64,000 nt of DNA from Euglena gracilis (GCA_039621445.1 CP154954.1:13200716-13264715); one strand, 5' to 3'. Numbered from the stretch's first letter, positions 17,227-43,560 are shown. The notes: generated by a model from the letters alone, not told the origin. Program-made: numbers and translations.

Positions 17227-17228
17227 AG

Positions 17229-17536: not shown

Positions 17537-17796
17537 CATATCCAGCAGTATTGGAAGCTGTGGAACAAGCGCAATAACATAGACAAAAACATAAACACTT
17601 TCTGAAACGATTTCGTTTCGGAGAATGTGTGTGTTTTATGTGAATGTTTCGCGTTTATACCCACCCCTGCACTCATCTTCTGTCTTTCTCACAGAGTTTT
17701 TGATTAAGATAGAAGCCTTCTTTTTTCAGTGCACCAGCACTCAAAGCTACTGACAAAAAGGTTTCCCTTCGTTGCAGTCGTCGTTCGGGTAGCATC

Positions 17797-20700: not shown

Positions 20701-21202
20701 CCCGACGATCCTCGTTCGCCCGAGGATCTGCGTGCCTTCATCGCCCCGGAGGATGAACCTCTGGCGCGAAGGAGACGTGAGGCGTCAGTCGCTTCCACCA
20801 CCGCGATTCCGCGGCGGGAGGAACGCGAACGCAGCCCCTTCGTCACAATTCTGGAGGCAGCGCCGCCGTCTCCGACAGGAACGGCTGTATCCTTGGTCTC
20901 TGCCCCGCGAGCGGCAGGGGAACGATCAGTTTCCCCGGCCCCCGCGGCGGCTCCCGTCTGTCCACCGGTAGGTGGGGACGAGGAACTCCCTCAGGAAGGC
21001 GAGAACGTGAAGGATATCCTCTACGCTGCTCTACCTGCACCGGCACAGCCTCGGCCAGACGAAGCACCCACAGAGGATATACCTGTGACAGCAACGCCTG
21101 TCCCGACGGCTGAGCCTCAACCCGAGGTGACTGGTATGGTCGTCGACGATATCCTCGAAGAACCTACCAGCCCCGCAGCACGCACCTCATTAGGAGGCCG
21201 CG
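17797..21202 (+). pseudogene. Unknown ORF3, 5' part (MLPGRGPG...); interrupted by family B LTR at 21203 and resuming at 26958
   Basis: ORF fragments 17797, 18090, 18753 and 19123 are collinear with other units; in-frame TGAs and frameshifts. Confidence 0.8.
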
Positions 21203-22333: not shown

Positions 22334-23615
22334 AAAACTGTAGATTTGGCATTTGTGCCTTGGGTGTGCAGCCTATAGGCTGAAGGGTTGGCATTAGCCA
22401 AAAATAATGGGGGGTAGGCTTTATCGCCCAGAAACATTGCCTTGCGGAATATGCATGGCACAAAAATACTACTGGGTGTATTCCCGAATCAAAAAAATTC
22501 GGCATATTGCCAAAAAGATCACACTGAGGTGTACAACCGCTGAAAAAATGCAGAATTGTGGCAGGCTGCTGCCAATTCACCGAACAAATGTGGTTAGGGT
22601 GGCTTATACCACTCTAAAAAAACCGCAAATGAACTGTGAATGCACACAAAAAGGTGGAACATTGTTCAAGTGCGGTGAAATTCATCACAAAAAGCTGGAT
22701 TTCACCATTTTTGAGCTATGGTTCTTATAAACCTTGCAGAAGGACACCATTGGTGTTGCACATGATGACCATTGGGTCCTCCGAATTATATCGGTAAGGG
22801 GGTCCCACTGAATAAAGTGGGGGGGTCCGAACCATATCGGTAAGGGGGTCCCACTGCATAAAGTGGGGGGGGGGCAAGAATGCCGTTAGTGTGGTCAGCA
22901 GAAAAAAATACTGCAAATATGACAAAATCTCATCATTTGTGACTATGCCACTGAGAAATACTGACTTTTGTCAGATTTTTAGGGAAATCCCTATCAGGAT
23001 TTAGGGCAGAAATGCAGATTCTGCGTCGAGAATTGCATTTTTGTAACCAAAAGTGCAACTTTGTTGCATTTTGAGTCATTTAAGACTGCAAATTAGCCAA
23101 GTGCACATAGTGCTTGTTGAGAGTGTCCAATAACACTGCATGTTTGCTGTTGTTTTACAGATTTTGGGACTTGGGTGTCTAATAACACCACATCACCCAA
23201 AAAGCTGTAAAATTGTGCAAAAATATCGCAAAAAAAGCAAAAATACGCTTAAAAAAACAAGTAAAACATGTCTATGACATCTTGAGCAAAGGAAAAATTG
23301 CTAATATCAGCATATACCTTTGCACTCCATTCTGGCATAGTGCCTCATGGTCACTCCCATTAGGGATATGAGTGCCAGAATAGGGAAAAATCACCAAAAA
23401 TTGCAGAAAAGCAATGATTTAAATGCAAATTTGCACATAAGTGCTCCCAAAAATGGTTCTAGTGAGTCGAAATGACTCCAAATTGTGGGCTATAGCCCTC
23501 TGAATTGTACCAGGCCTAATGGCCCGTACAGAGGGGGTAATGGGCAGAATGCTGCCAAAGGTACTAAAAAATGGCCATTAGCCCATCTGGTAACCAATGG
23601 TAATTAGCCATCAGA

Positions 23616-24704
23616 AACGATGTGGGGAACAGTATAGAAGCCTTTCAGGCTGATTTGCCAGTCTGGTACACGATCGTACAAGATCTGGCTCAAAATTTGG
23701 CTTTTGGCCAGATTGGCTTGGCTTAATTCAATTTTTCACGATCTCCTCAAATAAGAGTACCGTGTGGAGTTACAGCGATCTGTTTGCACCGCTGGACGGC
23801 TCATCGAACGAGCTTTCGAATGAGGGGTAACATGGCCTATCGGCCAGCTACAGGCGCTGAGATACGTCTTTGATCTTTTGCCTGTGTGAGTGAGCTTTTG
23901 CTATAAGCTCCCATAATTTATTCTACAAAGACAACTTTTGGTTTCTATGTCATACGCACTACGACATACAGTCAAAACCTCATGGTACGAGGTGCCAGAA
24001 ATTTTGAAGCTTTTGTGGTGATTTTGAGGCTATGCCAAAGTGACACTTATGCAAATCTGCATAAAACTGGCCTATTTGGCTTGTTTTGGCCAATTCAGCC
24101 ACTTTCAGCCATGTAATATGGCTTTTTGTGCCATTTTTTGAGGTCCTATGGACTTTTCACTTTATAATATGGATTTGTGGGCCTTTGGTCCTTTTGGTCC
24201 TTGCATTTTGTACAAATTGGTCCTATGGACCCATGGACCACATGGGTAATGGCCCATAGGCCTTGCACATCATAGGGTGTATTGGTCACATAGAACTGAG
24301 GCAAGTGGTCAAGTCCACAAAATCCATTCATGTTTGAATGAATTTTCTTCATTTTCTTTTGGGGGGGGGGCAACTATGTTGCACATAAAAGAAATGAAAT
24401 TGTGAGCATTTTCCCATATCGGGATTGCATTTTGCCAAAGTATAAGCCATTTAGGCACAAAACTGCTATTTAAGCACAAGTTGTATAAGTTTTCGGGAAA
24501 AATGCAGTATTTGCAATACATCCCAAAAACTTTATCACGTGACTTGTGTTGCTCTATAGAGCTTTGGGAACACCAAAATATTTTTGGTGTGGGAATCGAT
24601 TGAGCAAAGAACCGTATTCACATAAAACTTCACTTCTTGTTTGCTGTCATCAAACAAAATCTGCAATTTGATCCTGTGGTACAGAAACAAACATCCCTGA
24701 ACAG
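23616..24704. repeat. AT-rich interspersed repeat, copy 2; probably extends left to ~22334
   Basis: Direct repeat of 1-1091. Confidence 0.85.
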
Positions 24705-24711
24705 GGCTGAA

Positions 24712-25845
24712 TAGGGCTACTGCCCGCTATTCTGAGGTATACACCTCTGGGGATACCCCATCGACAACACCGTGCTCGCGCTGCACTGTGAAGACTTCAC
24801 AGCGGTATATGCCGCCAGTAAGAAGACGCACAGCGTACAGCGCGCACACCGCAATAATAGCCCCAACTTGTTACTTTTCGGCCTTAAGGCCCCCGTAAGA
24901 CTGCCAGACAGCAAAAATTCTTTGTAAGGTCTTTAGACCAGCCCCCCACTCCTCTCCCCTTTTCCCCCCCCGGGCAAAATCGCTGTCGCCGGCAGTTGGT
25001 TTTGTAAATAGGCTTTCTTCCCTGGTCAGGTATGACTGGCCAGGTGCCCCCTCTTCCACACCCACCCGAGAATTCGCTTTCCGATCATGGAATACACCAC
25101 CCCAAGTGCCATAGGCACACCCAAACCTTGGAGGATGGGATTTCTGGAAAGAAAACCTTCCAGCCCCACTTTCCAAGCGGGCTCTTCCACTTCCACCCCT
25201 TTACCGCAATAAGTAGTTACCCGCATAAGCGGGTAAACTCTTTTGCGCGTTTTGGGTTTTTGGGTTCCCCTCTCTTCCTTCCTTCCCTTTCTGGTTTTTT
25301 TACCTTGTGATGGAGAAGCAGACCCAAGATATGCTTTCCTGGTGAATGTTCCTCTATCTCACGGCCTTGCCTGTGTCCTTGCTGGCCTGGTCCAGTAAGG
25401 AAATCGGGCAAAGCCCTGGGAGGGGGATGTGTACCAGGCAGCATGAACATGGCACTGTGCATAGCAGCAAACTGCAAAATGCACAATGTCATGCCAGATA
25501 GTACTATTCCATGTTCTGCAATACAAATTGCAGAATTAGGAATAGCCTATCCTATCTCGGATCTGCCTTCTCTTTTCACAGGTGGTATTATTGTTTTGTT
25601 TTGTGTTTCACAAGCCCAAAAGGGCAAATCGAAGAATTGAAGACTTGAACTCCGATAGGAGAACACAACTGGAACTGAAGTTCCAAAATCACACCTGGTT
25701 TGCCTTGTGCTCTGCATAAGCCCAAAGGCAATAAAAACTAATAGTTAAGTGAAAGACTTTCTTTTTTGTTACTCTCCTGGTTCTGTTCCCACGGGAGGGT
25801 GTAAGTAGGCCGACAGGCAGTGGGAATAGAGTCAGGGGACGTACA
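24712..25845 (+). repeat. Right arm of inverted repeat (3' UTR, PPT, LTR-B 25428-25845), followed by a PBS at 25848-25860
   Basis: gggaggggga-tgtgtaccagg...ggggacgtaca-ct-tggtagcagaggg. Confidence 0.88.
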
Positions 25846-25886
25846 CTTGGTAGCAGAGGGTTTCGCTTGGCTTTCTCTTGAAAACC

Positions 25887-26305
25887 AATGTGGGGGGATG
25901 CTCGACAGAGCTGGACACCGTTAGGTGTGGCACCCATTGGGTGGGGGGTTGCTCAATAGAGCTGTGGGGGGAATGCTCGATAGAGCTGGAAAACGGGGTG
26001 GGGGAGTGATCGGTAGAGCTGAAAATTACGGTAAGGGGATGCTCAATAGAGCTGAAAACTGGGGTGGGCGGGTGCTCAATAGAGCTGGAAACCACTAGTG
26101 TGGGGGGATGCTCAATAGAGCTGGAAACCATTGGGGTGGGGGCATGCTCAATAGAGCTGGGAGTTGCCCCATATAGGGCCACACACCTGGGTTGGAGCAT
26201 ATACTCCTGCGACAAATCTTCATCAAACTTTCTCAAGGAACTAATCAAAGTGTTTGATGTGTTGGTGCTTGAGCTCTGCGTATTTTTATTTATTTGCAGA
26301 AACAA
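25887..26305 (-). pseudogene. gag: Truncated 5' end of family B gag (SSIEH repeat region)
   Basis: Homologous to ~5275-5750. Confidence 0.85.
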
Positions 26306-26957
26306 ACACAGTCAAACCCCAAAAAGTAAGCAAAGGAACAAACTTGGAAGGATGTGGCAGCGTATACTGCCCAGAGCCTCCTGAAGCTCGTACCTGTGCT
26401 TAGAAGTTGGCTCCAAACAGCTCGTGGATGCTTTGTAGCCTATAGGCTCAGCACCACTCACTGTTTGAAGTCACCTGTTAAGATGAGGGGGAGAAGGGGG
26501 GAGAAGGGGCGTAGGAAAGAAACCAAATCTGCTACCAAGTGTACGTCCCCTGACTCTATTCCCACTGCCTGTCGGCCTACTTACACCCTCCCGTGGGAAC
26601 AGAACCAGGAGAGTAACAAAAAAGAAAGTCTTTCACTTAACTATTAGTTTTTATTGCCTTTGGGCTTATGCAGAGCACAAGGCAAACCAGTTGGGATTTT
26701 GGAACTTCAGTTCCAGTTGTGCTCTCCTATCGGAGTTCAAATCTTCAAATCTTTGATTTGCCCTTTTGGGCTTGTGGAACACAAAACAAAGCAATAATAC
26801 CACCTGTGAAAAGAGAAGGCAGATCCGAGATAGGATAGGCTATTCCTAATTCTGCAATTTGTATTGCAGAACATGGAATAGTACTATCTGGCATGACATT
26901 GTACATTTTGCAGTCTGCTGCTATGCACAGTGCCATGTTCATGCTGCCTGGTACACA

Positions 26958-29197
26958 ATATACCTGTGACAGCAACGCCTGTCCCGACGGCTGAGCCTCA
27001 ACCCGAGGTGACTGGTATGGTCGTCGACGATATCCTCGAAGAACCTACCAGCCCCGCAGCACGCACCTCATTAGGAGGCCGCGTGCTCGGCGCCGTAGTC
27101 ACCGGCATTACTGCCGTGGCTGCTGCACTAACGCCACGAGGTGGAGGCGTAGCATCAAGCTCCGCCGCTGAGGTCGTGGAGATGCCGGATGTCGGCGTCC
27201 CTGCACCCCCATCTCCGGCAGAAGTGCAACCACCGTTAGGGGATGAACCCCTGCCGACAGAGACATCTGTCGCACCGGCTACAACGGAGGTTCAACCTCC
27301 CGTAGCACCTGCGCCAGCGGTTGTGGAGGATCAACCTCCTCGACCGGATGTCGAAATGGAAGTGGAGGAGATACCCCCACGACCACCGACACCGCGCAGG
27401 ATCCCTGCCGTCCCGAGGACAATGGCAGAGTTTATGGGAGTGTCAGCGCCTGTGGAAGCACCGATTCCGGTGACGACCACAGCACCACGCCCCGTCGGGC
27501 AGGATGACCCTGCTCGGCGCAGGGCGACTGAACAACCCCAGGAACGAGTGCCGACCCCTCGGAGCGTCATGCGCGATCCAGCGGTCATTATGCCCGCTTC
27601 GCCCAGACGGCAAACGTCTGCTCCGGCACCATCGGCTCCTGATACCAGGAGTAAGCTACAGGCGTCGCCTCCTGATTCCGGGAGAGCGAAGCCGAAAGGA
27701 GGCAAACCGGGTGCTGCACCCTGTAAACCCCCTGCCAAAGGCGGTGATGGGAAACCACCACTGAAAGGTAGCGCTGGAGGTCAGACTGGCGGACAGTCGA
27801 AAGGCCCTACGACAATGCACGACTATTCGGCCGTTACATCGTCCGGGTACGGCAAGAGCAAACCGAAAGGTAAGGCTCATGGTCGACAGGCCCAATCTTC
27901 CGCCGGATCGACGGATGAGGAGCAGGATGAACCTTCTTCACCTCCCGTGTCTGCGGATGCCCAGCTCTGGACTCAGGATATCCTGACCAGACTAGGCACC
28001 GTGGAAGAGAGGACGAAGAAACTGGCTGCTATTAGGCACCAGAAAGGGTCACATAATCGATAGATTCAGCCCCTCTTCGTCCGAGGAGAACCTTTCCACT
28101 ATGTCCCGGAACATACCTGGACATTCTGGAACAGGCGCTCACCCAGAGTACTGGCACAGTACTTTGGCGAGGATTGTGTGTTGGATTTCCAGCACGGCAC
28201 GTCCTTTGCCTGGACGTGCACCGTGTGCCACCATCTGCGGCACTACCAACCGCTTGTGCATGTGTGCAAGCGGCAGGTGCAATCCACGACGTTCCATCAC
28301 AGGGCATATGTGCCGAACTGTGTGGCGCTCGTATGTGGTGAGTGCCTGAAAGCCTGGAAGCACAGCTTGAACTACTCCTACAGTGAGAATGCTCACGACA
28401 GGGATATACCTGCCTTGTGCATCAACTGTACAGGGGCCAAGTTCGTGCAGACTGCTGATGGAGCAGTCACCACCATTGTCCCCCAGCACTTGGAGACACT
28501 GGAGAAGTGGAAGAAGGAGTACAAGCAGGTGGAAGGCCGCCTGAACCACTCCGACTTCCGAAAGGTAGAAAGCTACCGCCACACGGGAATGGCCCGTGAG
28601 TTCCAGACAAACGCTGGGGCAATGCGCCTCGCCGTCGAGGAACACGCCAAGGTAAGAATGCCTTACCTCTGGACCGATGGCGACTGGGAGACACAGGTTT
28701 ACCCCCTGTTCTCCAAGCGTCAGCACAGCGGATACGCCTTGCCACTGTGGCCTCCTGAAGAACACGATTTAGTGGACTTCAGAGGTTGGTTGGCGGCTGT
28801 ATTACGGCCCCATACTGCAAGAGCTCGGACAGCGAAGTGGATGTATGACATCAACTTCAAGCAAACCCCGGGGATGCCCCCGCAGGTGTCTGCGAATCAC
28901 CCCCGGATGAATTACATCATCTGGCCGGTGATGCTGCCCAGAATTTTCTGGGAACAGCTCCAACGGTACCTTCAGCACATTGCTGACCGTACCAGGGAGA
29001 AGCTGCCGGACAGTTGGATCAAGGACTGGGAGACCCCATCCTTTGATGTCAAAGATCCGGAGCACAACACCATCCGGAGCGAATCAGCTCCGCAGCGTTC
29101 CCCACGCCAACTGGAGTTGGTTGAGGACCCATTAGGGGACCCTCAACACGACTATTGGCGTGCGGTGCGCGAACGCCCAGCCGATAAAGGCAGGTGA
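26958..29197 (+). pseudogene. Unknown ORF3, 3' part; premature TAG at 28061
   Basis: Collinear with other units; ends RERPADKGR*. Confidence 0.85.
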
Positions 29198-29299
29198 GGT
29201 GGCTGTAAGCGCCAATGCGGCGTCTTTCAGAAACCTCGTCAGGTATTTGCCTGACACCCTGTTCGGGTATTTGCCCGAACACCCCTTCGAAGACCCTTT

Positions 29300-32200
29300 G
29301 CGGTATATATATTATATACCGCCCGAAAGGCAATGGTAGAGCCGAGGCAGCCGTGAAATCCGTTGTCAATATGCTTCGCCTTTCACTGGATGACTCGGGT
29401 AAGAATTGGTTATCCGTTCTTCATTGGTGTTTATTTTACATCAATACGTTGCCAGGGTTGGTATTAGCACACTCACCGTACAAAATTGTTTTCGGACGAG
29501 ACCCTCCGGCCATAGGGGATATCCCCTCGGAGAGACCCGCCCGAAGTAGTGTCAGCTGTGAAACGTGGTTTGCAGAAGTGGAATCACTCTTGGAAGCTGT
29601 GGAACAAGCGCAATAACATAGACATAAACATAAACACTTTCTGAAACGATTTCGTTTCGGAGAATGTGTGTGTTTTATGTGAATGTTTCGCGTTTATACC
29701 CCCCCCTGCACTCATCTTCTGTCTTTCTCACAGAGTTTTTGATTAGACAGAAGCCTTCTTTTTTCAGTGCACCAGCACTCAAAGCTACTGACAAAAAGGT
29801 TTCCCTTCGCTGCAGTCGTCGTTCCGGTAGCATCATGCTGCCTGGGCGCGGACCTGGACCAGGTCCACCATGGCCGCAGCCTCCGGGTGCCCCACATGCT
29901 GAGAGGGTTTCAGCCCCGGTATTCGCCGCGGCTACCAGTAGCCGGTCCGCATATGCGTCACCAGATCCATCTGCCGTCCAGCAGCCGGCACCCCAGCCAC
30001 CAGTGCAGCGCAGATTGCGCCTGCCCCCGTATGCGGGAGAGATGATCTTCCGCACTACGGAGACTTTGGAGCGGGCGATGTGTATGTGCGCACACCCCCC
30101 AACGGATCCCTTTATGGAAGCCCTTTGGGATGCATACTGTGCTCAGTTGTTGGTGGTAACCAACACGCCTGTGGCTCAGTGGTGTCCCTGTGGTCAAGCC
30201 CTGATGACGGGGAGACAGTATTTCTCGTGGGCATCCGATTCCGGATTCAAGCCTGGCGAAACAATGATGGACCTTGGCGTGTATGTGCCGCCCATGCTGC
30301 AAACGCAGAGGACGGTGGGATCCCACACCGTGCATATGCGTGAGCATACGCCCCCACCGGTATGTGAGGCTGTGCATGTCCCACCTGGGATGACGACAAT
30401 TTTTGCTCGCCCGCCCTCGCTGCAGCGAATGCCCCCGCGCGAGCCGCCAGCGGAGCAATTTGTCTCGCAGTACGCGACGCACGCGGATTACCCGCGCGGC
30501 GCACGCGTGCTCCCAGCCGGACAGTCGGACGTGCCCCCTGAGGCATACATCCATCACATGTTCGTGCACTGGATGCCACAGGCATCACCGGTCGCCCCTG
30601 CCCCTGGCGTTGAGCCACGGCGGCAGGTGGAGTCCATAGTGGTGGAGGATGAACCTCCCCACAGTGTGGCAGCCTGACCGCCCAGTGCACCTCCTGTCCA
30701 GACCGGGGATATCCCCCGTCGGCAGGAGGCTCCCCACTACCACATGGCACCTCCGGGAACCGAGCAGGATGAGCTTGCTCGGCACTTCCTGCAGGAGCCA
30801 GTATTCGCGTCTGAAGAGCACCGGACGAGGTATTACGCCTCTCTGGCTGCCCTTCAGGGATACACGCCCTACCATCCGTACCAGCCGCAGCTGCGGGTGG
30901 CAACCCCGGTTTTACCCGGTGAGCCCCCGGCAGGTGTGGCAGTATTACCTGCCACCCTGAAGCGCGACAGGGCTACGGAGAACCTTACCACACAGCCCAG
31001 GCGACCCGAGCCAAGGGACGCGGAAGGCGGTGTGGCGATGCAGGTGGAAGCCAGCCAGGATACCCCGACTGGACGACCACCGGCAGAGGCACAGGTGGCG
31101 ATGAGCCGTCCTGTTGCCGCAATGCCACCGCCGATCCCTCCGGTATGGAAGGAGCCGCGACCCCCTGCGTCGAAGCCAATCCCACGCCAGGCTCCTAGCC
31201 AACGCCCAGCCACGCCATCACCGCGACGTGCAGCAGGTCGGCAAGATCCCTCCCAAGAGATGGAATGGGAAGGAACCGAACCGACTGCGGCACCGAGCGC
31301 CTGACCCTCTGGTATTCGCCAGATGGGGAAGGACACTGGCAAGGCTGAGGGCAAAGGCAAAGGAGAAGGCAAAGGCGTTTGCCGGCAAAGGTAAGGGTGA
31401 GGGCAAAGGTGAGGGTAAAGGTAAGGGTACAGGACGTGAGGAGGAAGAAGAACCAGCGGAAGTCCTCTCGGACTTTGAGCAAATGCTCAGGTTCAAGGAG
31501 GAGCTGGAGGACGAAGGCTGGCGAATGCAGCATGATTACCATGTTGCAGGAAACCGCCCCGTCACCCCTCCACAAGCTGTCATCGATGTGGTATTACACC
31601 ACACCGAGAACAGAGTCAGACAATTCCATTACGGAATTGATCTGTACGCCTTCGAAGGTGAAGGTGGCAGACCGTTGCTGGATGCCCAGCCAGGTTTGTG
31701 GGAGCTCTGGTTTTGGCTGGGATACCCCTGCCAGAACTGGGGTCTCTTCAGCGATTCCACTGGTCGCAGTTACCTGCACCAGTTATGATTCCGGGACCAG
31801 CATGTGTTGGCCCGGAGGCTGAAGGCCTACTTCGAATGTATTCACTCGGTAGGACCCCTCGGAGTCCAGTGGAAATACTACCCCCTGAACCCCGACATCG
31901 AACGCCTGATCGAGGTGTTGTGGTGCAACAACCTCCAGGTTTGGCTGGTGAGCCATTACGGCTCCACCTTCCGCGTTAAGCGTGTTTCCCTGGCTTACCC
32001 ACAGAGGTATGACCTCTGTTGTAAGTACTGCGGGCAGGAATTTCCTGTCGACTTCTGGGGATTCGGCGTCCGCGGAAGTCCTCCACCGCCTCATAACCCG
32101 GGCCTGGAGATGGGACGCCGCATGCTTATGCATGTGTGCCGCGACGCCCCGGATCTCCAGGGCAAAAGTCACCGCGTCCGCAAGCAGCGTGTTTTTATGC

Positions 32201-35200
32201 TGCACCAGTTCTGGTGGCGAGCCTGGACCACCTACGTCATGGAGGTGTATGTACATCTCTGTGACACCCAGGACGACAGGCCTGGTATGGAAAGCTTGCC
32301 ACCGGACTACGGCGATCCCATTGAGGGTCCTCGTCGTCGTCGGGTCATCGCCGACCTGCGCCGCAACTGGCACCTGGCTGATATCAGCCTGGAAGAACAC
32401 TTGCGGCGACAGTTCGGCGGTACCCTCGACCGGGAGGTATTCCTCCAGTTGATGATGCACCCGAAGGCCGTCCTCGACCTGCGTATGCCGATTCTGGCAT
32501 GCGTTCAGGAGTTAAAGGAGGGCTTTTTCGAGGTCAGGGAGGATACGCGTTACCTCGGATTCCTGGGCCCGAACAGGCCTGCGAACGCCTGGGTGCAGCC
32601 ATCATGGCCGCCACCCTGGCCCAACAGCGTCAGCAGCAGTACGCTGGCCTTTTACAGGCTGGCGGATACTCAGGGATGCCGATGGCATCCCGACGATCCT
32701 CGTTCGCCCGAGAATCTGCGTGCCTTCATCGCCCCGGAGGATGAACCTCTGGCGCGAAGGAGACGTGAGGCGTCAGTCGCTTCCACCACCGCGATTCCGC
32801 GGCGGGAGGAACGCGAACGCAGCCCCTCCGTCACCATTCTGGAGGCAGCGCCGCCGTCTCCGACAGGAACGGCTGTATCCTTGGTCTCTGCCCCGCGAGC
32901 GGCAGGGGAACGATCAGTTTCCCCGGCCCCCGCGGCGGCTCCCGTCTATCCACCGGTAGGTGGGGACGAGGAACTCCCTCAGGAAGGCGAGAACGTGAAG
33001 GATATCCTCTACGCTGCTCTACCTGCACCGGCACAGCCTCGGCCAGACGAAGCACCCACAGAGGATATACCTGTGACAGCAACGCCTGTCCCGACGGCTG
33101 AGCCTCAACCCGAGGTGACTGGTATGGTCGTCGACGATATCCTCGAAGAACCTACCAGCCCCGCAGCACGCACCTCATTAGGAGGCCGCGTGCTCGGCGC
33201 CGTAGTCACCGGCATTACTGCCGTGGCTGCTGCACTAACGCCACGAGGTGGAGGCGTAGCATTAAGCTCCGCCGCTGAGGTCGTGGAGATGCCGGATGTC
33301 GCCGTCCCTGCACCCCCATCTCCGGCAGAAGTGCAACCACCGTTAGGGGATGAACCCCTGCCGACAGAGACATCTGTCGCACCGGCCACAACGGAGGTTC
33401 AACCTCCCGTAGCACCTGCGCCAGCGGTTGTGGATGATCAACCTCCTCGACCGGATGTCGAAATGGAAGTGGAGGAGATACCCCCACGACCACCGACACC
33501 GCGCAGGATCCCTGCCGTCCCGAGGACAATGGCAGAGTTTATGGGAGTGTCAGCGCCTGTGGAAGCACCGATTCCGGTGACGACCACAGCACCACGCCCC
33601 GTCGGGCAGGATGACCCTGCTCGGCGCAGGGCGGCTGAACAACCCCAGGAACGAGTGCCGACCCCTCGTAGCGTCATGCGCGATCCAGCGGTCATTATGC
33701 CTGCTTCGCCCAGACGGCAAACGTCTGCTCCGGCACCATCGGCTCCTGATACCAGGAGTAAGCTACAGGCGTCGCCTCCTGATTCCGGGAGTGCGAAGCC
33801 GAAAGGAGGCAAACCGGGTGCTGCACCCTGTAAACCCCCTGCCAAAGGCGGTGATGGGAAACCACCACCGAAAGGTAGCGCTGGAGGTCAGACTGGCGGA
33901 CAGTCGAAAGGCCCTACGACAATGCACGACTATTCGGCCGTTACATCGTCCGGGTACGGCAAGAGCAAACCGAAAGGTAAGGCTCATGGTCGACAGGCCC
34001 AATCTTCCGCCGGATCGACGGATGAGAAGCAGGACGAACCTTCTTCACCTCCCGTGTCTGCGGATGCCCATCTCTGGACTCAGGATATCCTGACCAGACT
34101 AGGCACCGTGGAAGAGAGGACGAAGAAACTGGCTGCTATTAGGCACCAGAAAGGGTCACATAATCGATGGATTCAGCCCCTCTTCGTCCGAGGAGAACCT
34201 TTCCACTATGTCCCGGAACATACCTGGACATTCTGGAACAGGCGCTCACCCAGAGTTCTGGCACAGTACTTTGGCGAGGATTGTGTGTTGGATTTCCAGC
34301 ACGGCACGTCATTTGCCTGGACGTGCACCGTGTGCCACCATCTGCGGCACTACCAACCGCTTGTGCATGTGTTTAAGCGGCAGGTGCAACCCACGACGTT
34401 CCATCACAGGGCATATGTGCCGAACTGTGTGGCGCTCGTATGTGGTGAGTGCCTGAAAGCCTGGAAGCACAGCTTGAACTACTCCTACAGTGAGAATGCT
34501 CACGACAGGGATATCCCTGCCTTGTGCATCAACTGTACAGGGGCCAAGTTCGTGCAGACTGCTGATGGAGCAGTCACCACCATTGTCCCCCAGCACTTGG
34601 AGACACTGGAGAAGTGGAAGAAGGAGTACAAGCAGGTGGAAGGCCGCCTGAACCACTCCGACTTCCGAAAGGTAGAAAGCTACCGCCACACGGGAATGGC
34701 CCGTGAGTTCCAGATCGACGCTGGGGCAATGCGCCTCGCCGTCGAGGAACACGCCAAGGTAAGAATGCCTTACCTCTGGACCGATGGCGACTGGGAGACA
34801 CAGGTTTACCCCCTGTTCTCCAAGCGTCAGCACGGCAGATACGCCTTGCCACTGTGGCCTCCTGAAGAACACGATTTAGTGGACTTCAGAGGTTGGTTGG
34901 CGGCTGTATTACGGCCCCATACTGCAAGAGCTCGGACAGCGAAGTGGATGTATGACATCAACTTCAAGCAGACCCCGGGGATGCCCCCGCAGGTGTCTGC
35001 GAATCACCCCCGGATGAATTACATCATCTGGCCGGTGATGCTGCCCAGAATTTTCTGGGAACAGCTCCAACGGTACCTTCAGCACATTGCTGACCGTACC
35101 AGGGAGAAGCTGCCGGACAGTTGGATCAATGACTTGGAGACCCCATCCTTTGATGGCAAAGATCCGGAGCACAACACCATCCGGAGCGAATAAGCTCCGC

Positions 35201-35406
35201 AGCGTTCCCCACGCCAACTGGAGTTGGTTGAGGACCCATTAGGGGACCCTCAACACGACTATTGGCGTGAGGTGCGCGAACGCCCAGCCGATAAAGGCAG
35301 GTGAGGTGGCTGTAAGCGCCAATGCGGCGTCTTTCAGAAACCTCGTCAGGAATTTGCCTGACACCCTGTTCGGGTATTTGCCCGAACACCCCTTCGAAGA
35401 CCCTTT
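29300..35406 (+). repeat. Uninterrupted tandem array unit (6107 bp; carries ~470-bp and 45-bp deletions relative to the ~6.6-kb consensus)
   Basis: Junction gcggtatatatattatataccgc at 29300 and 35407; integrase fragment then ORF3 (29835-35304), including a 1129-aa open stretch at 31804-35193. Confidence 0.92.
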
Positions 35407-35429
35407 GCGGTATATATATTATATACCGC

Positions 35430-36223
35430 CCGAAAGGCAATGGTAGAGCCGAGGCAGCCGTGAAATCCGTTGTCAATATGCTTCGCCTTTCACTGGCTGA
35501 CTCGGGAAAGAATTGGTTATCCGTTCTTCATTGGTGTTTATTTTACATCAATACGTTGCCAGGCTTGGTATTAGCACACTCACCGTACAAAATTGTTTTC
35601 GGACGAGACCCTCCGGCCATAGAGGATATCCCCTCGGAGAGACCCGCCCGAAGTAGTGTCAGCTGTAAAACGTGGTTTGCAGAAGTGGAATCACTCCGCC
35701 CTGCAGTCCAATCACGTGTCACAGAAATTCATTCCAACAAACGTAAATCGTTTTTACAAAACTTCAACACACCCGTGTATAGTCCATATAGGTGACCGCG
35801 TGTGGGTACGGAATAACCGCACCCACATGCAATCTTCCAAGCTAGATCCTCTTTGGCTCGGCCCATGCGAATTTTTGGAGAGATTAGGTAGTATCGGGCG
35901 ATATAAAGTTGCCTTGCCCAACGGGATTGAGGACGTCCATATGGACGACTTCAAACCGTACCTAAGCCCCCCAGACGGAAAGGCTATCACCTGCCTATAT
36001 TTCAAGCCCCGTTCCAGATTACCTGAAACGGACGACTTTGTGGTCGATAAGATAATAGAGCACAAGGTCGACAGGGGTGTGCACTACTGGAAAGTTCGCT
36101 GGAAATGGTATGGGCCAGAGAGGACACTTGGGAGCCAGCATCCAGTTTTGTTGGACATATCCAGCAGTATTGGAAGCTGTGGAACAAGCGCAATAACATA
36201 GACATAAACATAAACACTTTCTG
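35430..36223 (+). pseudogene. Integrase C-terminal half plus chromodomain (frameshifted)
   Basis: NGRAEAAVK, SPYKIVFGR, WLGP and WKVRWK motifs. Confidence 0.88.
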
Positions 36224-36415
36224 AAACTATTTCGTTTCGGAGAATGTGTGTGTTTTATGTGAATGTTTCGCGTTTATACCCACCCCTGCACTCATCTTCT
36301 GTCTTTCTCACAGAGTTTTTGATTAAGAGAGAAGCCTTCTTTTTTCAGTGCACCAGCACTCAAAGCTACTGACAACAAGGTTTCCCTTCGCTGCAGTCGT
36401 CGTTCGGGTAGCATC

Positions 36416-39400
36416 ATGCTGCCTGGGCGCGGACCTGGACCAGGTCCACCATGGCCGCAGCCTCCTGGCGCGCCATACCTCCAGTACCCTCAGTATGCTG
36501 AGGCCCCGATTCCGGGTGCCCCACATGCTGAGAGGGTTTCAGCCCCGGTATTCGCCGCGGCTACCAGCAGCCGGTCCGCATATGCGGCACCAGATCCATC
36601 TGCCGTCCAGCAGCCGGCACCCCAGCCACCAGTGCAGCGCAGATTGCGCCTGCCCCCGTATGCGGGGGAGATGATCTTCCGCACTACGGAGACTTTGGAG
36701 CGGGCGATGTGTATGTGCGCACACCCCCCAACGGATCCCTTTATGCAAGCCCTTTGGGATGCATATTGTCCTCAGTTGTTGGTGGTAACCAACACGCCTG
36801 TGGCTCAGTGGTGTCCCTGTGGTCAAGCCCTGATGACGGGGAGACGGTATTTCTCGTGGGCATCCGATTCCGGATTCAAGCCTGGCGAAACAATGATGGA
36901 CCTTGGCGTGTATGTGCCGCCCATGCTGCAAACGCAGAGGACGGTGGGATCCCACACCGTGCATATGCGTGAGCATACGCCCCCACCGGTAGGTGAGGCT
37001 GTGCATGTCCCACCTGGGATGACGAGAATTTTTGCTCGCCCGCCCTCGCCGCAGCGAATGCCGCCGCGCGAGCAGCCAGCGGAGCAATTTGTCTCGCAGT
37101 ACGCGACGCACGCGGATTACCCGCGCGGCGCACGCGTGTTCCCAGCCGGACAGTCGGACGTGCCCCCCGAGGCATACGTCCAACACATGTTCGTGCACTG
37201 GATGCCACAGGCATCACCGGTCGCCCCTGCCCCTGGCGTTGAGCCACGGCGGCAGGTGGAGTCCATAGTGGTGGAGGATGAACCTCCCCACAGTGTGGCA
37301 GCCTGACCGCCCAGTGCACCTCCTGTCCAGACCGGGGATATCCCCGTCGGCAGGAGGCTCCCTACTACCACATGGCACCTCCGGGAACCGAGCAGGATGA
37401 GCTTGCTCGGCACTTCCTGCAGGAGCCAGTATTCGCGTCTGAAGAGCACCGGACGAGGTATTACGCCTCTCTGGCTGCCCTTCAGGGATACACCCCCTAC
37501 CATCCGTACCAGCCGCAGCTGCGGGTGGCAACCCCGGTTTTACCCGGTGAGCCCCCGGCAGGTGTGGCAGTATTACCTGCCACCCTGAAGCGTGACAGGG
37601 CTACGGAGAACCTTACCACACAGCCCAGGCGACCCAGCCCACGGGACGCGGAAGGCGGTGTGGCGATGCAGGTGGAAGCCAGCCAGGATACCCCGACTGG
37701 ACGACCACCGGCAGAGGCACAGGTGGCGATGAGCCGTCCTGTTGCCGCAATGCCACCGCCGATCCCTCCGGTATGGAAGGAGCCGCGACCCCCTGCGTCG
37801 AAGCCAAGCCCACGCCAGGCTCCTAGCCAACGCCCAGCCACGCCATCACCGCGACGTGCAGCGGATCGGCAAGATCCCTCCCCAGAGATGGAATGGGAAG
37901 GAACCGAACCGACTGCGGCACCGAGCGCCTGACCCTCTGGTATTCGCCAGATGGGGAAGGACACTGGCAAGGCTGAGGGCAAAGGCAAAGGAGAAGGCAA
38001 AGGCGTGGCCGGCAAAGGTAAGGGTGAGGGCAAAGGTGAGGGTAAAGGTAAGGGTACAGGACGTGAGGAGGAAGAAGAACCAGCGAAAGTCCTCTCGGAC
38101 TTTGAGCAAATGCTCAGGTTCAAGGAGGAGCTGGAGGACGAAGGCTGGCGAATGCAGCATGATTACCATGTTGCAGGAAACCGCCCCGTCACCCCTCCAC
38201 AAGCTGTCATCGATGTGGTATTACACCACACCGAGAACAGAGTCAGACAATTCCATTACGGAATTGATCTGTACGCCTTCGAAGGTGAAGGTGGCAGACC
38301 CTTGCTGGATGCCCAGCCAGGTTTGTGGGAGCTCTGGTTTTGGCTGGGATACCCCTGCCAGAACTGGGGTCTCTTCAGCGATTCCACTGGTCGCAGTTAC
38401 CTGCACCAGTTAGGATTCCGGGACCAGTATGTGTTGGCCCGGAGGCTGAAGGCCTACTTCGAATGTATTCATTCGGTAGGACCCCTCAGAGTCCAGTGGA
38501 AATACTACCCCCTGAACCCCGACATCGAACGCCTGATCGAGGTGTTGTGGTGCAACAACCTCCAGGTTTGGCTGGTGAGCCATTACGGCTCCACCTTCCG
38601 CGTTAAGCGTGTTTCCCTGGCTTACCCACAGAGGTATGACCTCTGTTGTAAGTACTGCGGGCAGGAATTTACTGTCGACTTCTGGGGATTCGGCGTCCGC
38701 GGAAGTCCTCCACCGCCTCGGGATAACCCGGGCCTGGAGATGGGACGCCGCATGCTTATGCATGTGTGCCGCGACGCCCCGGATCTCCAGGGAAAAAGTC
38801 ACCACCGTCCACAAGCAGCGTGTTTTTATGCTGCACCAGTTCTGGTGGCGAGCCTGGACCACCTACGTCATGGAGGTGTATGTACATCTCCGTGACCACC
38901 AGGACGACAGGCCTGGTATGGAAAGCTTGCCAATGGACTACGGCGATCCCATTGAGGGTCCTCGTCGTCGTCGGGTCATCGCCGACCTGCGCCGCAACTG
39001 GCACCTGGCTGATATCAGCCTGGAAGAACACTTGCGGCGACAGTTCGGCGGTACCCTCGACCGGGAGGTATTCCTCCAGTTGATGACGCACCCGAAGGCC
39101 ATCCTCGACCTGCGTATGCCGATTCTGGCATGCGTTCAGGAGTTAAAGGAGGGCTTTTTTGAGGTCTGGGAGGATACGCGTCACCTCGGATTCCTGGGCC
39201 CGAACAGGCCTGCCAACGCCTGGGTGCAGCCATCATGGCCGCCACCCTGGCCCAACAGCGCCAGCAGCAGTACGCTGGCCTTTTACAGGCTGGCGGATAC
39301 TCAGGGATGCCGATGGCACCCCGACGATCCTCGTTCGTCCGAGGATCTGCGTGCCTTCATCGCCCCGGAGGATGAACCTCTGGCGCGAAGGAGACGTGAG

Positions 39401-39586
39401 GCGTCAGTCGCTTCCACCACCGCGATTCCGCGGCGGGAGGAACGCGAACGCAGCCCCTCCGTCACCATTCTGGAGGCAGCGCCGCCGTCTCCGACAGGAA
39501 CGGCTGTATCCGTCGTCTCTGCCCCGCGAGCGGCAGGGGAACGATCAGTTTCCCCGGCCCCCGCGGCGGCTCCTGTCTGTCCACCG
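36416..39586 (+). pseudogene. Unknown ORF3, 5' part; interrupted by element M and resuming at 52721
   Basis: Fragments 36416, 37372, 37951 and 38609; sequence continues ccaccg|gtgggtggggacgagg across the insertion. Confidence 0.85.
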
Positions 39587-39588
39587 TT

Positions 39589-40293
39589 TGTACGGGATAA
39601 CCCCCTTCGCTGCCTCGCCTGTTCCAGGTCCGTGGGGTTTCCCTGTCCCTGCGTGGGATCGATTACCCTGCCCAGTTGAATTTCAATTCCCCGCGCGGCC
39701 TTTGTTAAAAATTGTTTCATTTTCTTGGGTTAAAAAGACCTTTTTCCTTTTTGGGGTTGGTGTGGGGTGGGTCCTTGGGGGGGTCACAAATCGGGCATAA
39801 AACACCTGTAGGTATTGCTCAAAGCAGCGAAATGCTTTCAAATTGGTGGTCGTGGTCAGTGAAGGTCTTCGGTGCCGGCGAACTGGCGCTTCTTAGGCAC
39901 ACCAGCAGCAACAACTCCTGCTTCAGACTTCACTTCAGATCACAGGACCAATGCTTGAACAGATAATCAACTTCCACTTCCAATGAAATCTTGACAAACT
40001 TGAATTGGCTTGAAACTTGAACCAAATAGGCCAATGGCAAATAGATAATCAGATTGAGCAAGGACAGAGTAGTTACAGAGCCCTGTGGAACAGGTTGTAA
40101 AATCGTGGTTAAAATCTGGTCAGAGGTTAAAATTCAGTTAGGAGGGGATTATCCTAATTGTTTCATCATTGAAACTGTAGGCCCCTGGTTGGGTCAAGTC
40201 CCCTGGTTAGTTCTGTGGGCGCCTGGGTTAGCTTTTAAGGTTAGCGCCTGAGGTTAGCTAACTTACCCGGGCACTCAGCACCCCTGACTCACA
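39589..40293 (-). repeat. 3' LTR of element M
   Basis: tgtacgggataacccc...ccctgactcaca; roughly 15 differences from the 5' LTR by eye. Confidence 0.95.
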
Positions 40294-42219
40294 CTCCCCT
40301 TCCCAAGGAGTTGTTTACAACTCTTTTCGACTCACTTAGGAAGGGGTGCGGAGTGAGTTTGTTGTAAGGGGGCTGGCCGTTTATGTTTTTGGTCACAGGC
40401 TGGTCAAACATTCCCTCGGGGGGGGGGGCCTGGTTTTTTTTTTCAGGTGGCTGTCCCCCCCAGGTCCCTTGTCGTGTGGGGGGGGGCAGGCGCCAGGCGC
40501 CGACCACAGCCCCCCCCCCTTTTTTTAAAACAAAAAGGGGGCAGCTCCCGTTCGGGGGTTCCGCCTCCACCTGCCAAGCGGTCAGTCGCCGGCCAGGGGC
40601 AAATTTTTACAAAATTCAAGCGAAGGCTGAGTCAGAGTCTTTCGGTTAAAATCAGGCTGGGGCAGGGCCCGGTCCGGTCCGGTGGCTGGTTTCCCCACGT
40701 TTGGTTTCCGGGGGGGGGGGCAGGCATCCAGCACCGCCCACAAACAAAACTTATTTGTCTGCTTTTATTTTGTGGGGGGGCAGTTGGCTGGGCCCCAGTT
40801 TTTTTTTTCAGCCTCGGTGGCGCACCCCTCCCAGGTCCAGGTCCTGAACGGGGGGGGGGGCACGCAAACGCTGCCTACCTCAGCCAAAAAGTCGTTTTGA
40901 ATTCTTTTTTACACTCCCTGGGGTGTATCCTGGCACCCCGGATCTGTCAGGCGTGGGGGGGGGGGGGCAGCAGGATCCTTAATGCCCCTCTTCCGCTCCA
41001 CCCCCTCTCTTTCGTCAAACGTTTTGTGTAGTTGAAAAATGCACAAATTAAGCGGAGGGCTGGGTTTCAGTTGAGCCCTCTACGCTCTGGGTCAGACCAG
41101 GCCTGGCCAACCCAGGTTCTGGTTTCTTTTTCTTTTTTCTTTCTTTGCAGGTCCGGGGCTGCCCCCCCCCTCTAGTCCCTTCGTAGCCTCAGGGGGGGCG
41201 GCAGGTGTCAAGCGCTGCCCACGGTCTGTTTTGGGGGGGGGGGGCAGTTGGCTGGGCCCCCCATCTTTTCCTTTCTTGTCTCTTTTTTTTCTTTTCTTTT
41301 TGCTTTTTTTGTTTTTTGTGTGCGGTGGCTGGACCCCCCCCTCCCAGGTCTCATGTCGGGGGGGGGACGGCAGGCGCCAAGCGCCGCTGCCCCCCCCCCT
41401 TTTTTTAGTAACAAATCTCTGCCCCAACCTTAGGCTGCCCGTGGGGGGGAACCCAGGTCCTCTCTGAGGGAGGGGGGCCCCCTAGGTTCAGTGGGGGGGG
41501 GGCCCCCCCGGGTTCGGCGTGGGGGGGGGGGGGCGCTCCAGGTTCAGTGTGGGACAGCTTCCCTTCCCACTGCGGTTGAAGAAACGGTCTGAGAGCTCTG
41601 GACAGGTAAAGGGGGGCTGCGAGGGGGCAGCCCGCTCCAATATTGGGGTGTGGGGGTAAGGGAGCCTCCAGGGGGGAGCTAGCCCCAGAGGTCCCGGAGG
41701 TACCAGGGGGTGGGGCGTCGCGGTGGCGAGTCGTCGTCGGAGGAGGACGGGGAGGTTGGCGACGCCAGGGGGGACGGGCTCCGGTCCGGGGTCCCGATGT
41801 AGAGGGGGGGGCTGAGGGAGCGGGGGCTGCGGGGGCTGCTGCATACGGAGCGCCCGCGCTCCCTCCGGGGGGGTTGTGTGGGTGTTGGGGTGGGCTGGGT
41901 TGGCGTCGGGGTGGGTATGCGTGAGGTTGGGGGTGGGCTGCTTGCTGGCTGGGTAGGGGTGGGTGTGGGTGCTCTCCAGCAGCTGGCGGGGAGGAGTACG
42001 GCCTCGAGGGCCTTGCGTAGGGGTGGGGGTAGTATGGTGGGGATGATGAAGTCGGGGGTTGGGGGTGGCTGGTATGGGGGAGGGGGTGGGCGTCGAAGGG
42101 GTTGAGGTCGAAAGTAGGGGTGGTGATGTTGGGGTTGTTGGTGTAGGTGTTGGCGTTGTGGACGTCGATGTCGGGACATCTGTGAGGGAATGTGGGGATG
42201 ATGAAGACAAGGAACCTTG

Positions 42220-43560
42220 TCACTTCATCAATTCCAACAATTCCTTGACGTCCAAATCCACCCCGTTCTCCACACAACAGGCAACCACGTCCTTGTTGAT
42301 TCTAAAGAAAAAATTCCCCAGTGGTTCCCATTTGTCCGCTTCTGGCCCAAATCCTTTCCACCGCACCAAAAATTCTGTCTTTCCGTTTTCATGTCGGTGG
42401 TTGAGCACCCTTTCCACCTCCCTCTCGTCGGGTCCAACCTCCAGTTCTTGTGCTTTCCCACACCAAAAATACAAAGGCACGGGGGTGGTCGAGTAAAGGT
42501 CTTCCACGTGTGGTTTCAGTTGGGAACGGTGGGCTGGTTGTCGCTTCCCCGGCTGAAGCTCCACCACATAGGAGTGGTCTCCCACTCTTTCCGAAACCAC
42601 CACTGGCCCTTTCCACCTGGGTTCCAACTTGTCGGTTCCAGGCTGTCGTTCAGGTTGGTACCAAACCTTGGAACCAATTTGAAGGGCTGGGGGTTCACGT
42701 CGTTTCTGGTTCACAGCCTCTTTCCGAGCCTCCAGTTTTTCATTGAGCGTTTGGGCCACCCTCCTGTCTTGTTCCTTCATTCGCTTGAGGAATTCGGTTG
42801 CACCCTCAGCCTCCCGCTGTGGTTTGTGCGGAATCCCACACAAGGGTCGGTGTCGCCCAAAAACAATTTCATAAGGGGACAATCTAACCTCACCCGGCAC
42901 GTCGTGAATGGCTCTCAGGGCCCGTGGGAGGAGTTCCACCCACGGGACACCGTTTTCTGCAGCCAGTTTTGCAAGTTTCCGCATTACCTGCTGCCCGGCT
43001 ACCTCTGCCCTTCCGTTCGCCTGATGGCGGTAAGCCTGTCCATAGGCAACCCTTACACCGTGTGCTGCGCACAGAGTTTTCCACCAGGCTGCTATGAACT
43101 GTGGAACCCTGTCGGAACTCACCACCGAGGGGATTCCGAACAGATCCCACTGTAGAAACATTTCCTTGGCCACCTTTTCAGCTGTGAGACCCTTGTTAAG
43201 ATGGGGGGTAGCAACCATCCACCCACTCAATCGGTCCACACAAAGTGCCAAAGTGTCGTATCGTTTCCCTTCAAAAGTGGTTTACGGTAGTGCAAAGAGG
43301 TCGACCGCCACGCTGTCCATCAGGTGGGGCGGGACCGGTGTTGGTTGTATTGGACACTTGAAGGGTTGATGGTTTGGTTCAGTGACCTGACACGTTTCAC
43401 ACATCCCCATCGTTTTGCTGGTCAGTTTTTTTGCGTGTTTTTTTTGCGAAAAGAAACCACCGACCCATCTGCTCCCACAGCCGTTCAGCCCCTGGGTGTC
43501 CCGCCGCTTCGTGGTGTTCCCTGATGACCCTCCCCATGACACCCCTTGGTACACACAAGA
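42220..43560 (-). pseudogene. pol: Integrase (HHCC, D-D-E, GPY/F) plus chromodomain of element M, split by two frameshifts near 43440 and 43280
   Basis: HHEAAGHPG...CETCQ; VAVDLF; SSDRVPQF; QANGRAE; WKGP; EVERVLNHR...FLVRWKGFGPEADKWEP. Confidence 0.93.

Follow-up and report, generated by a model that had tools for sequence, protein, structure and literature searches.

A very large additional reading frame of a chromodomain-bearing retrotransposon, seen as decayed copies in a tandem array of Euglena gracilis

What is the very long reading frame that begins shortly after the end of an integrase-chromodomain gene in the genome of Euglena gracilis, and does it belong to a mobile element or to the host? 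The frame lies in a stretch of 64,000 nucleotides (GCA_039621445.1 CP154954.1:13200716-13264715), called the window here, from whose first letter all positions are counted. A first-pass annotation had described it as a third open reading frame (ORF3) of ~1,830 amino acids at 29835-35304, carried as cargo in the env position by family C chromoviruses, that is, by chromodomain-bearing Ty3/gypsy retrotransposons with long terminal repeats (LTRs). ORF3 is a very large, constrained additional ORF (aORF). It brings two new protein modules, and the copies described here are dead ones in an array derived from an element fragment. We hold, with a probability of about 0.7, that a rearranged piece of a chromodomain-bearing Ty3/gypsy LTR retrotransposon was repeated head to tail, that the flagged stretch is a decayed unit of this array, and that ORF3 is a genuine cargo gene.

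Length, breaks and constraint of ORF3

On the plus strand, a very long frame runs from an ATG at 29835 to a TAA at 35191-35193. The start and the great length given in the first-pass annotation were confirmed; its end overshoots the real stop by 111 nt. The spacing of ~190 bp it gave after the integrase-chromodomain frame is also correct, as the stop of that frame (29642-29644) lies 190 nt before the ATG. The longest open piece in this copy is 31789-35190 (with the stop, to 35193) and encodes 1134 amino acids. In 300 mononucleotide shuffles of 29590-35400, the longest ORF measured 185 amino acids at the median and 351 at most, and thus the length of ORF3 is beyond chance. Antisense ORFs across the flagged region do not exceed 242 amino acids. 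The parts of the frame are as follows.

29590-29644 (+): end of the integrase-chromodomain frame, last 55 nt, with its stop TGA at 29642-29644; matches the unit from 36170 onward
29835-30677 (+): ORF3 segment N, 280 amino acids, Pro-rich, with a CMCAH..WCPCG block; ends in a TGA
30678-31304 (+): ORF3 segment M1, 208 amino acids, Pro-rich, Cys-free; ends in the second TGA
31323-35193 (+): main conserved part of ORF3, frame shifted by an extra T near 31379, private stop at 31786-31788; alternatively a separate ORF from the ATG at 31323
31438-32830 (+): block B, globular, ~465 amino acids, rich in Trp and other aromatic residues, CCKYC..DFWGFG..MHVC; homologues P0020, P0015 and P0008
32831-34089 (+): linker, Pro/Ala-rich, disordered, ~420 amino acids, with a borderline hydrophobic stretch and a Lys/Gly-rich basic tract
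34090-35190 (+): block C, globular, ~367 amino acids, with a CTVCH..HVC..NCVALVCxxC..CINC cluster and a C-terminal PGMPPQ..ANHP..N..IWP

The frame of the flagged copy is interrupted at two TGA codons and at a private stop, and is shifted by one extra base. It was read in pieces: N (29835-30674) and M1 (30678-31301), each followed by a TGA, then M2 (+1 frame, 31105 to the stop at 31786-31788) and the 1134-amino-acid piece. The TGA at 30675-30677 and the TGA at 31302-31304 are common to all four 5′ copies in the window, and both sit in the identical context GCC-TGA-CC. The extra T near 31379 is shared by three of the four window copies; the base is omitted in 40898 of 42322 of the summed contig depth of run X9, so the extra T is a genomic minority. 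Where it is absent, as in the copy at 36170, M1 and M2 share a frame that is interrupted only by the TGA at 31302. The stop at 31786-31788 is private to the flagged copy, every X9 contig aligned there having G for T at 31786, and so is a 48-bp in-frame deletion at 29884. The flagged copy is a dead pseudogene of a protein-coding extra gene. When the lesions are allowed for, the length of ORF3 would be ~1,800 codons rather than ~1,830 amino acids, the single product being a reconstruction.

Coding constraint was seen in block C. The ratio of nonsynonymous to synonymous change (dN/dS), a check that the first-pass annotation had suggested, is 0.32-0.36 over 430 codons between the array copies and the copy in an LTR-bounded element (synonymous differences 24.5-27.5, nonsynonymous differences 31.5-36.5), and the synonymous excess is significant (p = 9e-5 to 5e-4). 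Homologues were searched for with HMMER, using the 1134-amino-acid piece as query against 1.84 billion protein representatives. The search returned 19 proteins at E <= 1e-3, 13 at E <= 1e-10 and one at E <= 1e-30. About ten of them span block C with 24-47% identity, and three (P0020, P0015 and P0008) span block B. The block C homologues retain both the CxxCH..HxC..Cx4CxxC..CxxC cluster and the PGxPxQ..N.P..IWP motif (alignment A1, 10 homologues); P0017 (431 amino acids) covers all of block C. At block B, P0020 is 30% identical over 154 amino acids (E = 8e-15).

Two of the related proteins stand close to the copies in the window. P0003 (eukprot EG_transcript_25142, transcript-derived) is identical to block C of the LTR-bounded element at 227 of 230 residues, and 93% identical to the array copy; its name prefix, like the likeness of the neighbouring element to published Euglena elements, fits E. 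gracilis as host, and a literature search on this transcript name found nothing. P0023 (jgi, 367 amino acids, 90% identical) has the same start Met and spans segments N and M1. It reads Arg at the first TGA (30675) and contains the 16 residues lost from the flagged copy. Further word-index searches of proteins contributed P0023 and no other protein, and metagenome scans with alignment A2 and with P0023 returned no relative. Judged by its sequence, ORF3 is a genuine protein-coding gene whose known relatives all fall in a small, lineage-restricted family.

The shared TGA codons allow a different reading, in which two consecutive genes are present: ORF3a, from 29835 to the TGA at 31302-31304 (~505 amino acids, Pro-rich), and ORF3b, from the ATG at 31323 (MGKDTGKAEGKGKG...) to 35193 (~1,290 amino acids, with blocks B and C). 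This is possible, although we consider it unlikely, and the same holds for its corollary that the TGA is genuine, or leaky and passed by read-through. The TGA at 31302 is found in 4/4 window copies, 18 nt downstream of it lies an ATG whose frame leads into block B in the genomic majority, and all the distant homologues detected map after 31323. The common GCC-TGA-CC context of the two shared stops fits as well, and in the same family an in-frame TAG separates gag from protease too, a possible case of read-through. However, P0023 has Arg at the first TGA in the identical context, and a CGA>TGA change in the founder of the array explains that stop and plausibly the second one too. Decay in the array is mostly of the C>T and G>A kind, and all four copies stem from one rearranged founder, which makes a shared stop weak proof. 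The two TGAs are most simply read as CGA codons that decayed in the founder, with sense-codon evidence at the first of them only.

The array unit and the progenitor element

ORF3 DNA was found by self-comparison at nine further places in the window, with 94.7-98.7% identity. The copies belong to a unit of 6,581 bp (29590-36170) that is repeated head to tail. Each unit runs from mid-integrase through the SH3 domain, the chromodomain and its stop, 190 nt of spacer, ORF3 and ~220 nt of 3′ untranslated region (3′UTR) into the mid-integrase of the next unit. The entry point into the integrase lies ~5 codons before the glutamate of the DDE motif (PKGNGRAEAAV). At all four junctions (near 9045, 29306, 35413 and 59388) the breakpoint is identical, from the 3′UTR (..CCCTTTGCGGTAT) through an AT filler into mid-integrase. 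The two LTR-type copies (55183, and the reverse complement of 10737) run on instead into the remaining 3′UTR and the LTR. The first-pass annotation had not noticed the array; the flagged copy and its neighbours are units joined at one breakpoint, and not separate LTR-bounded elements. In the flagged unit, moreover, a 473-bp deletion between 29589 and 29590, upstream of ORF3, has removed the SH3 domain and the greater part of the chromodomain: 26958-29589 matches 33065-35696 of the unit, and 29590 matches 36170.

The units are interrupted by three insertions: 9716-17536 (with the target site duplication CATAT), 21204-26957 (419-bp LTRs) and a 13.1-kb element at 39576-52720 (715-bp LTRs). Since different units carry different insertions, they are separate stretches of DNA and did not arise through a duplication error of the assembly. 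Changes private to one array copy are mostly C>T or G>A (36/87 in the 5′ part and 19/34 in the 3′ part) and are even over the codon positions (23/33/26 in the 5′ part and 15/7/12 in the 3′ part). This pattern is that of neutral decay after duplication at the DNA level. The array grew by tandem duplication of DNA; neutral decay of its units followed, with C>T and G>A as the main changes, and other LTR elements inserted into them. In run X9, 10,443 contig pieces fell on the unit and all 30 bins were covered. The ORF3 family is very abundant.

The true 3′ end of the element is preserved at 52721-56186. There, ORF3 is followed by the full 3′UTR, a polypurine tract (PPT) GGAAGGGGGA at 55854-55863 and a 323-bp LTR at 55864-56186 with the ends TGTGTA..GTACACT. 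The same order, ORF3 followed by 3′UTR and LTR, is found inside 9716-17536, the only LTR-bounded element of the ORF3 family in the window; the first-pass annotation had reported both places correctly. This element has 310-bp LTRs that are 100% identical, the duplication CATAT and a primer-binding site (PBS) TGGTAGCAGA after the 5′ LTR. Its gag (17057-12972, minus strand) has 1,362 amino acids and a zf-CCHC match (E = 8.8e-7, Pfam, ORF 12969-17057), and the protease follows right after the gag stop (LIDTGC and ILGYPFL motifs). An internal deletion comes next, and then the last ~1.5 kb of the ORF3 region, with an open frame at 10892-12382 (497 amino acids, block C), the 3′UTR and the LTR. The presence of the ORF3 region in an LTR-bounded element is therefore established for its last ~1.5 kb only. 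The gag of this copy ends at a TAG (GAG TAG GGG, 12930-13010) and the protease continues in frame (12174-13700, minus strand). This order points either to gag-UAG-pol read-through or to a nonsense mutation of the one copy.

On the upstream side, array units contain the C-terminal half of the integrase only. In the equivalent frame at 59291-60169, SH3_Tf2-1 was matched with 30.9 bits (E = 3.1e-7, cut-off 30) and Chromo with 20.4 bits (E = 4.9e-4), below the Pfam cut-off of 25.1. The frame is 29% identical over 251 amino acids to the integrase of the 39576-52720 element (rve, SH3, and Chromo with 38 bits). No reverse transcriptase (RT), RNase H or N-terminal half of integrase of the ORF3 family was found in the 64-kb window; they are deleted from 9716-17536 and lie outside the array unit. 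In the progenitor element, ORF3 sat between the integrase-chromodomain and the 3′UTR, PPT and LTR. This position makes it retrotransposon cargo, as the first-pass annotation had held.

It is improbable that ORF3 is passenger DNA that the chromovirus picked up from the host or from another mobile element, that has no role in its life cycle, and whose conservation would date from an earlier or parallel existence as a gene of that source. In favour of capture, block C also occurs as the C-terminal module of shorter proteins (P0017, 431 amino acids, with a Met 47 residues before the block, and P0007, which is similar), the modular layout with long linkers resembles a fusion, and fragments of the ORF3 linker lie inside the other gene products P0011 and P0016. 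However, dN/dS is 0.32-0.36 between two element-borne lineages, and an internally deleted element whose 100% identical LTRs point to recent movement keeps block C open over 497 amino acids. Moreover, no known host family in Pfam or NCBIfam matches, and the very high copy number fits a gene borne by a transposable element (TE).

Tandem arrays and satellites derived from LTR-retrotransposon fragments are known in plants. The present array is like them in that an internal fragment is amplified head to tail without LTRs between the units; it differs in its unit of 6.58 kb, which still carries a nearly complete giant ORF. A search of the literature on Euglena for tandem arrays of LTR fragments returned nothing relevant. 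The pieces of the array and its surroundings are listed below; in the last of them, the frame 61703-64000 is open up to the window end.

7032-9715 (+): array piece with ORF3 3′ part, 3′UTR, junction and integrase C-half; cut by the insertion of 9716-17536
9716-17536 (-): LTR-bounded, internally deleted element of the ORF3 family with LTRs, target site duplication, PBS, gag, protease, ORF3 block C and 3′UTR
17537-21204 (+): array piece after the insertion, ORF3 5′ part, unit 36160/29590-33192
26958-29589 (+): array piece just upstream of the flagged copy, with ORF3 3′ part (unit 33065-35193), 3′UTR, junction and integrase fragment; 98.6% identity, no indels
35194-35413 (+): first ~220 nt of the element 3′UTR, colinear with 54965-55183 and the reverse complement of 10737-10957, both of which reach an LTR
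35414-36224 (+): junction and integrase C-half, with AT-rich filler ATATATTATATACC, integrase, SH3 and chromodomain; stop at 36222-36224
36170-39586 (+): next unit with ORF3 5′ part, interrupted by the 13.1-kb LTR element at unit coordinate ~32955
52721-56186 (+): same unit resumed, with ORF3 3′ part, full 3′UTR, PPT and LTR; true element 3′ end
57990-64000 (+): second array stretch, with ORF3 3′ part, junction, integrase C-half with SH3 and chromodomain (59291-60169 open) and ORF3 5′ part

The insertion at 21204-26957 has 419-bp direct terminal repeats (99.8% identical) together with internal inverted copies, and its ends resemble the LTR termini of the family (..GGTACACA). In place of a short target site duplication, a duplicated ~125 bp of unit sequence (33065-33190) lies on its two sides. 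The insertion could stem from recombination between two insertions in adjacent units. Repeats also link the left end of the window with this insertion (1-1091 with 23616-24704, 94.8%; 5386-6133 with 25967-26684, 85%).

Protein modules and their possible role

The fraction of order-promoting residues is 0.4-0.56 in block B and 0.04-0.28 in the linker. The GKGKGE repeats and the CMCAH..WCPCG, CCKYC..HVC and CGEC..CINC clusters named in the first-pass annotation are all present in the flagged copy, but the CTVC..HVC cluster reads HVF there and HVC in the other copies. The N-terminus (MLPGRGPGPGPP...) is Pro/Gly-rich, and script hydropathy (KD19) does not exceed 0.95 in the first 280 amino acids. 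The sole stretch that reaches KD19 = 1.6 is GGRVLGAVVTGITAVAAAL, mid-protein and inside the disordered linker. The earlier statement that no signal peptide or transmembrane segment is visible was confirmed at the N-terminus, with this one borderline stretch elsewhere.

An Env-like additional ORF in Athila-like elements is described in the extract of PMC2864245 consulted. It is scarcely credible that ORF3 is an envelope-like membrane glycoprotein of the Athila/errantivirus type: the position 3′ of pol is the same and GGRVLGAVVTGITAVAAAL reaches the usual threshold, but this stretch has a Pro in the 57%-identical relative P0006, the N-terminus has no hydrophobic signal-like segment, and no coiled-coil or fusion-type match was found. 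A C-proximal anchor was likewise not seen by hydropathy, and the first-pass annotation was right that this is not a typical Env.

The database searches gave no family. Pfam, run on sets of 23, 52 and 10 ORFs or proteins, and NCBIfam returned 0 families for ORF3 at thresholds as loose as E <= 5 or E <= 1; near-matches were obtained on homologues only, sub-threshold and of the zinc-ribbon type (DZR E = 0.7, Lar E = 0.037-0.19). Sequence and profile searches of PDB gave best E values of 0.096 and 0.2, and scores in the ESM Atlas were 0.77-0.78, in the noise range. A match to a known host gene or TE domain, which would have spoken for another origin, was thus not seen in Pfam, NCBIfam or PDB. The structure prediction that the first-pass annotation had proposed was of little help. 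AlphaFold2 models had a predicted local distance difference test score (pLDDT) of 48.5 for block C (13-row alignment) and 38.4 for block B (7 rows). Fold searches with these low-pLDDT models (Foldseek against pdb, best E = 0.64; VIA, best Z 4.3 and 3.5) assigned no fold.

Block C has 8-10 conserved Cys/His residues (CxxCH..HxC..Cx4CxxC..CxxC), which may be compared with the cross-brace fingers of the ZZ/RING type. Among the 50 VIA matches listed, at least 10 over model residues ~99-188 of block C are ZZ-type fingers (Z 2.1-3.2), from dystrophin, Nbr1, p62, HERC2, KCMF1, BIG, Ada2, EP300 and MIB1. These scores were obtained on a model with pLDDT 48.5, and Pfam gave no zf-ZZ or zf-RING match at E <= 5. 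The ligand order in block C also departs from what we take to be the ZZ consensus. The resemblance may serve as a lead, and does not amount to membership.

A by-eye CxxC..HH..N..CxxC pattern of an HNH nuclease was dropped, as the HH pair is not kept in P0007 and P0017. Blocks B and C are not detectably related (hhalign probability 0.4%), and an internal duplication was dropped on that ground. ORF3 showed no similarity at E <= 1e-3 to the long N-terminal extensions of gag or to any other ORF of at least 80 amino acids in the window. Such extensions, of ~1,100 amino acids before the zinc knuckle, are seen in the gag-like ORFs 12969-17057 (-), 47930-51454 (-) and 2287-5847 (-). They have no Pfam family except a weak NPV_P10 match (coiled-coil-like), and the two compared share little past the knuckle.

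Other LTR elements of Euglena carry DNMT and DAM cargo, and block B might by analogy be a highly divergent cytosine DNA methyltransferase. Its best ESM Atlas match is a DNA_methylase cluster, YPCQNWG and DFWGFG presumably resemble DNMT motifs IV and I, and the neighbouring element has weak Dam and DNA_methylase matches; yet the Atlas score of only 0.77 is within the range of shuffled proteins, PF00145 was not matched at E <= 5 (Pfam), hhalign of the block B profile against the DNMT-like ORF of the window gave a probability of 0.4%, the PCQ string is missing from the homologue P0020 and the order of the motifs does not fit, so that this identity is very improbable. In all probability, ORF3 is neither an envelope protein nor an enzyme of recognisable class.

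A role as binder was proposed on account of the conserved zinc-ligand clusters, the Lys/Gly basic tracts, the acidic tract before the globular blocks and the long Pro/Ala linkers. ORF3 would be built of a Pro-rich N-terminal third, a GK repeat with an acidic tract, block B with a zinc-ribbon-like CxxC..HxC site, the linker, and block C, whose Cys/His cluster has 8-10 ligands and whose PGxPxQ..N.P..IWP motif is invariant. The ORF3 message would be subgenomic or initiated internally. Tentatively, and with odds that we put well short of even, the likeliest role of ORF3 is that of a trans-acting, zinc-dependent nucleic-acid or chromatin binder that would serve the nuclear or particle stage of the element. 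On the earlier guess of the first-pass annotation, an anti-silencing or nucleic-acid-binding accessory factor, the results speak neither way. A wider conjecture, more doubtful still, is that ORF3 founds a euglenid-restricted accessory family. Its zinc modules, CxxC..DFWGFG..HxC in block B and a cross-brace Cys/His cluster with PGxPxQ..NHP..IWP in block C, would recognise chromatin or nucleic acid for the element or draw it in. In that family block C would also act as a stand-alone protein of ~430 amino acids, and the array would be a macrosatellite born from the element.

Weight of the evidence and place among known elements

Several points weigh against ORF3 as a genuine cargo gene now decaying in an array. 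RNA support is thin: reads on the unit numbered 15 of 12.9 M in run X15, 125 of 8.29 M in X18 and 39 of 11.9 M in X19, on both strands, and 14/15, 31/125 and 29/39 of them, respectively, overlap only partially, and some reads belong to a chimera with a host gene. Adjacency of integrase and ORF3 is seen only in the array units, which are one lineage, and no window copy has RT, RNase H or the integrase N-half beside ORF3. Both TGAs are present in all four 5′ copies and no copy is intact, hence the reconstructed status of the ~1,800-residue single product. The N-terminal third was searched by word index only, with one match (P0023). Finally, there are 0 Pfam or NCBIfam families, no PDB match below E = 0.09 and only noise-level Atlas scores; the AlphaFold models are poor, which leaves the fold matches insignificant and the ZZ likeness resting on a low-confidence model.

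A further check named in the first-pass annotation concerned a subgenomic transcript: no read starts, ends or joints pointing to a subgenomic or spliced-leader message were found among the alignments listed. Runs under other organism labels and a leaf-litter metatranscriptome contained 0.15-0.22 of the sampled words, from which no conclusion is drawn.

Two short segments of the unit occur in other transcripts or proteins. The linker piece 33365-33488 is found as ~60-67 amino acids with 73-81% identity inside two unrelated-looking proteins, P0011 (506 amino acids) and P0016 (395 amino acids). Read ends of run X19 at 33488 spell LQHVYMAAQV, which is P0016, a different protein carrying the linker piece. 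Another expressed gene has apparently acquired this piece. An integrase fragment of ~45 nt (35458-35504) was matched by 17 reads of X19 with unrelated letters on both sides, and it looks like a short element-derived segment inside another abundant RNA.

ORF3 has counterparts by position. Extra ORFs of uncertain function 3′ of pol are known in Gypsy elements, chromodomain-bearing ones included, according to the extract of PMC2864245. When tested as a sense aORF of the Ty3/gypsy kind, an extra sense-strand ORF between pol and the 3′ LTR, ORF3 was found to agree: the integrase stop lies 190 nt before its ATG, and the 3′UTR, PPT and LTR come after its stop. It differs from the described aORFs in its ~1,800 codons, longer than the gag of the element (1,362 amino acids), in its euglenid host and in having no detectable link to a known aORF or domain. 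The Env-like ORFs of Athila and errantiviruses occupy the same position 3′ of pol, whereas ORF3 has no signal-like N-terminus and no fusion fold match.

A second likeness is with Euglena LTR elements carrying DAM and DNMT cargo ('EpiLTR' or DAM-LTR), described in the available part of a preprint (bioRxiv 10.64898/2026.05.21.726589). As far as that part goes, they too are chromodomain-bearing Ty3-like elements with unusual cargo, probably from the same host genus. The terms 'ORF3', 'third ORF' and 'additional ORF' have no mention in it, although its supplements may list such elements. The 13.1-kb element at 39576-52720 (minus strand) has 715-bp LTRs that are 97.4% identical and a gag-like ORF of 1174 amino acids with a CCHC knuckle. 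Weak matches to Dam (PF05869, E = 2e-4) and DNA_methylase (PF00145, E = 4e-3) follow, and then RT, RNase H, integrase, SH3 and Chromo. This element fits the EpiLTR architecture as far as the available part of the preprint describes it, and its integrase C-half is the one 29% identical to that of the ORF3 family. By the same partial description, its EpiLTR-type cargo is methyltransferase-like and lies between gag and RT, whereas ORF3 comes after the chromodomain and has no methyltransferase signature. Beyond Euglena, a Ty3 element of an orchid reportedly carries an RNA demethylase domain.

To our knowledge, the LTR retrotransposons of Euglena are almost undescribed. They make up 32.81% (text) or 21.8% (Table 4) of the 2.37-Gb E. 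gracilis assembly in the parts of PMC11252322 consulted. A search for cargo of Euglena retrotransposons in the literature found the one preprint, on methyltransferases, and ORF3 was not found in the literature on Euglena retrotransposons and on extra ORFs of chromoviruses. An abundant element that carries a constrained gene of ~1,800 codons without a recognisable domain offers an entry point to the persistence of retroelements in a protist genome heavily methylated at cytosine (5mC). Blocks B and C add two new conserved modules to the set of TE-borne domains. Much of the 'LTR' sequence in the Euglena genome may represent amplification of fragments at the DNA level and not retrotransposition, which bears on repeat annotation and on the dating of insertions. 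If ORF3 does read chromatin, Euglena chromoviruses would have, in addition to the chromodomain and the DAM/DNMT cargo, a third and non-enzymatic means of engaging the epigenome of their host.

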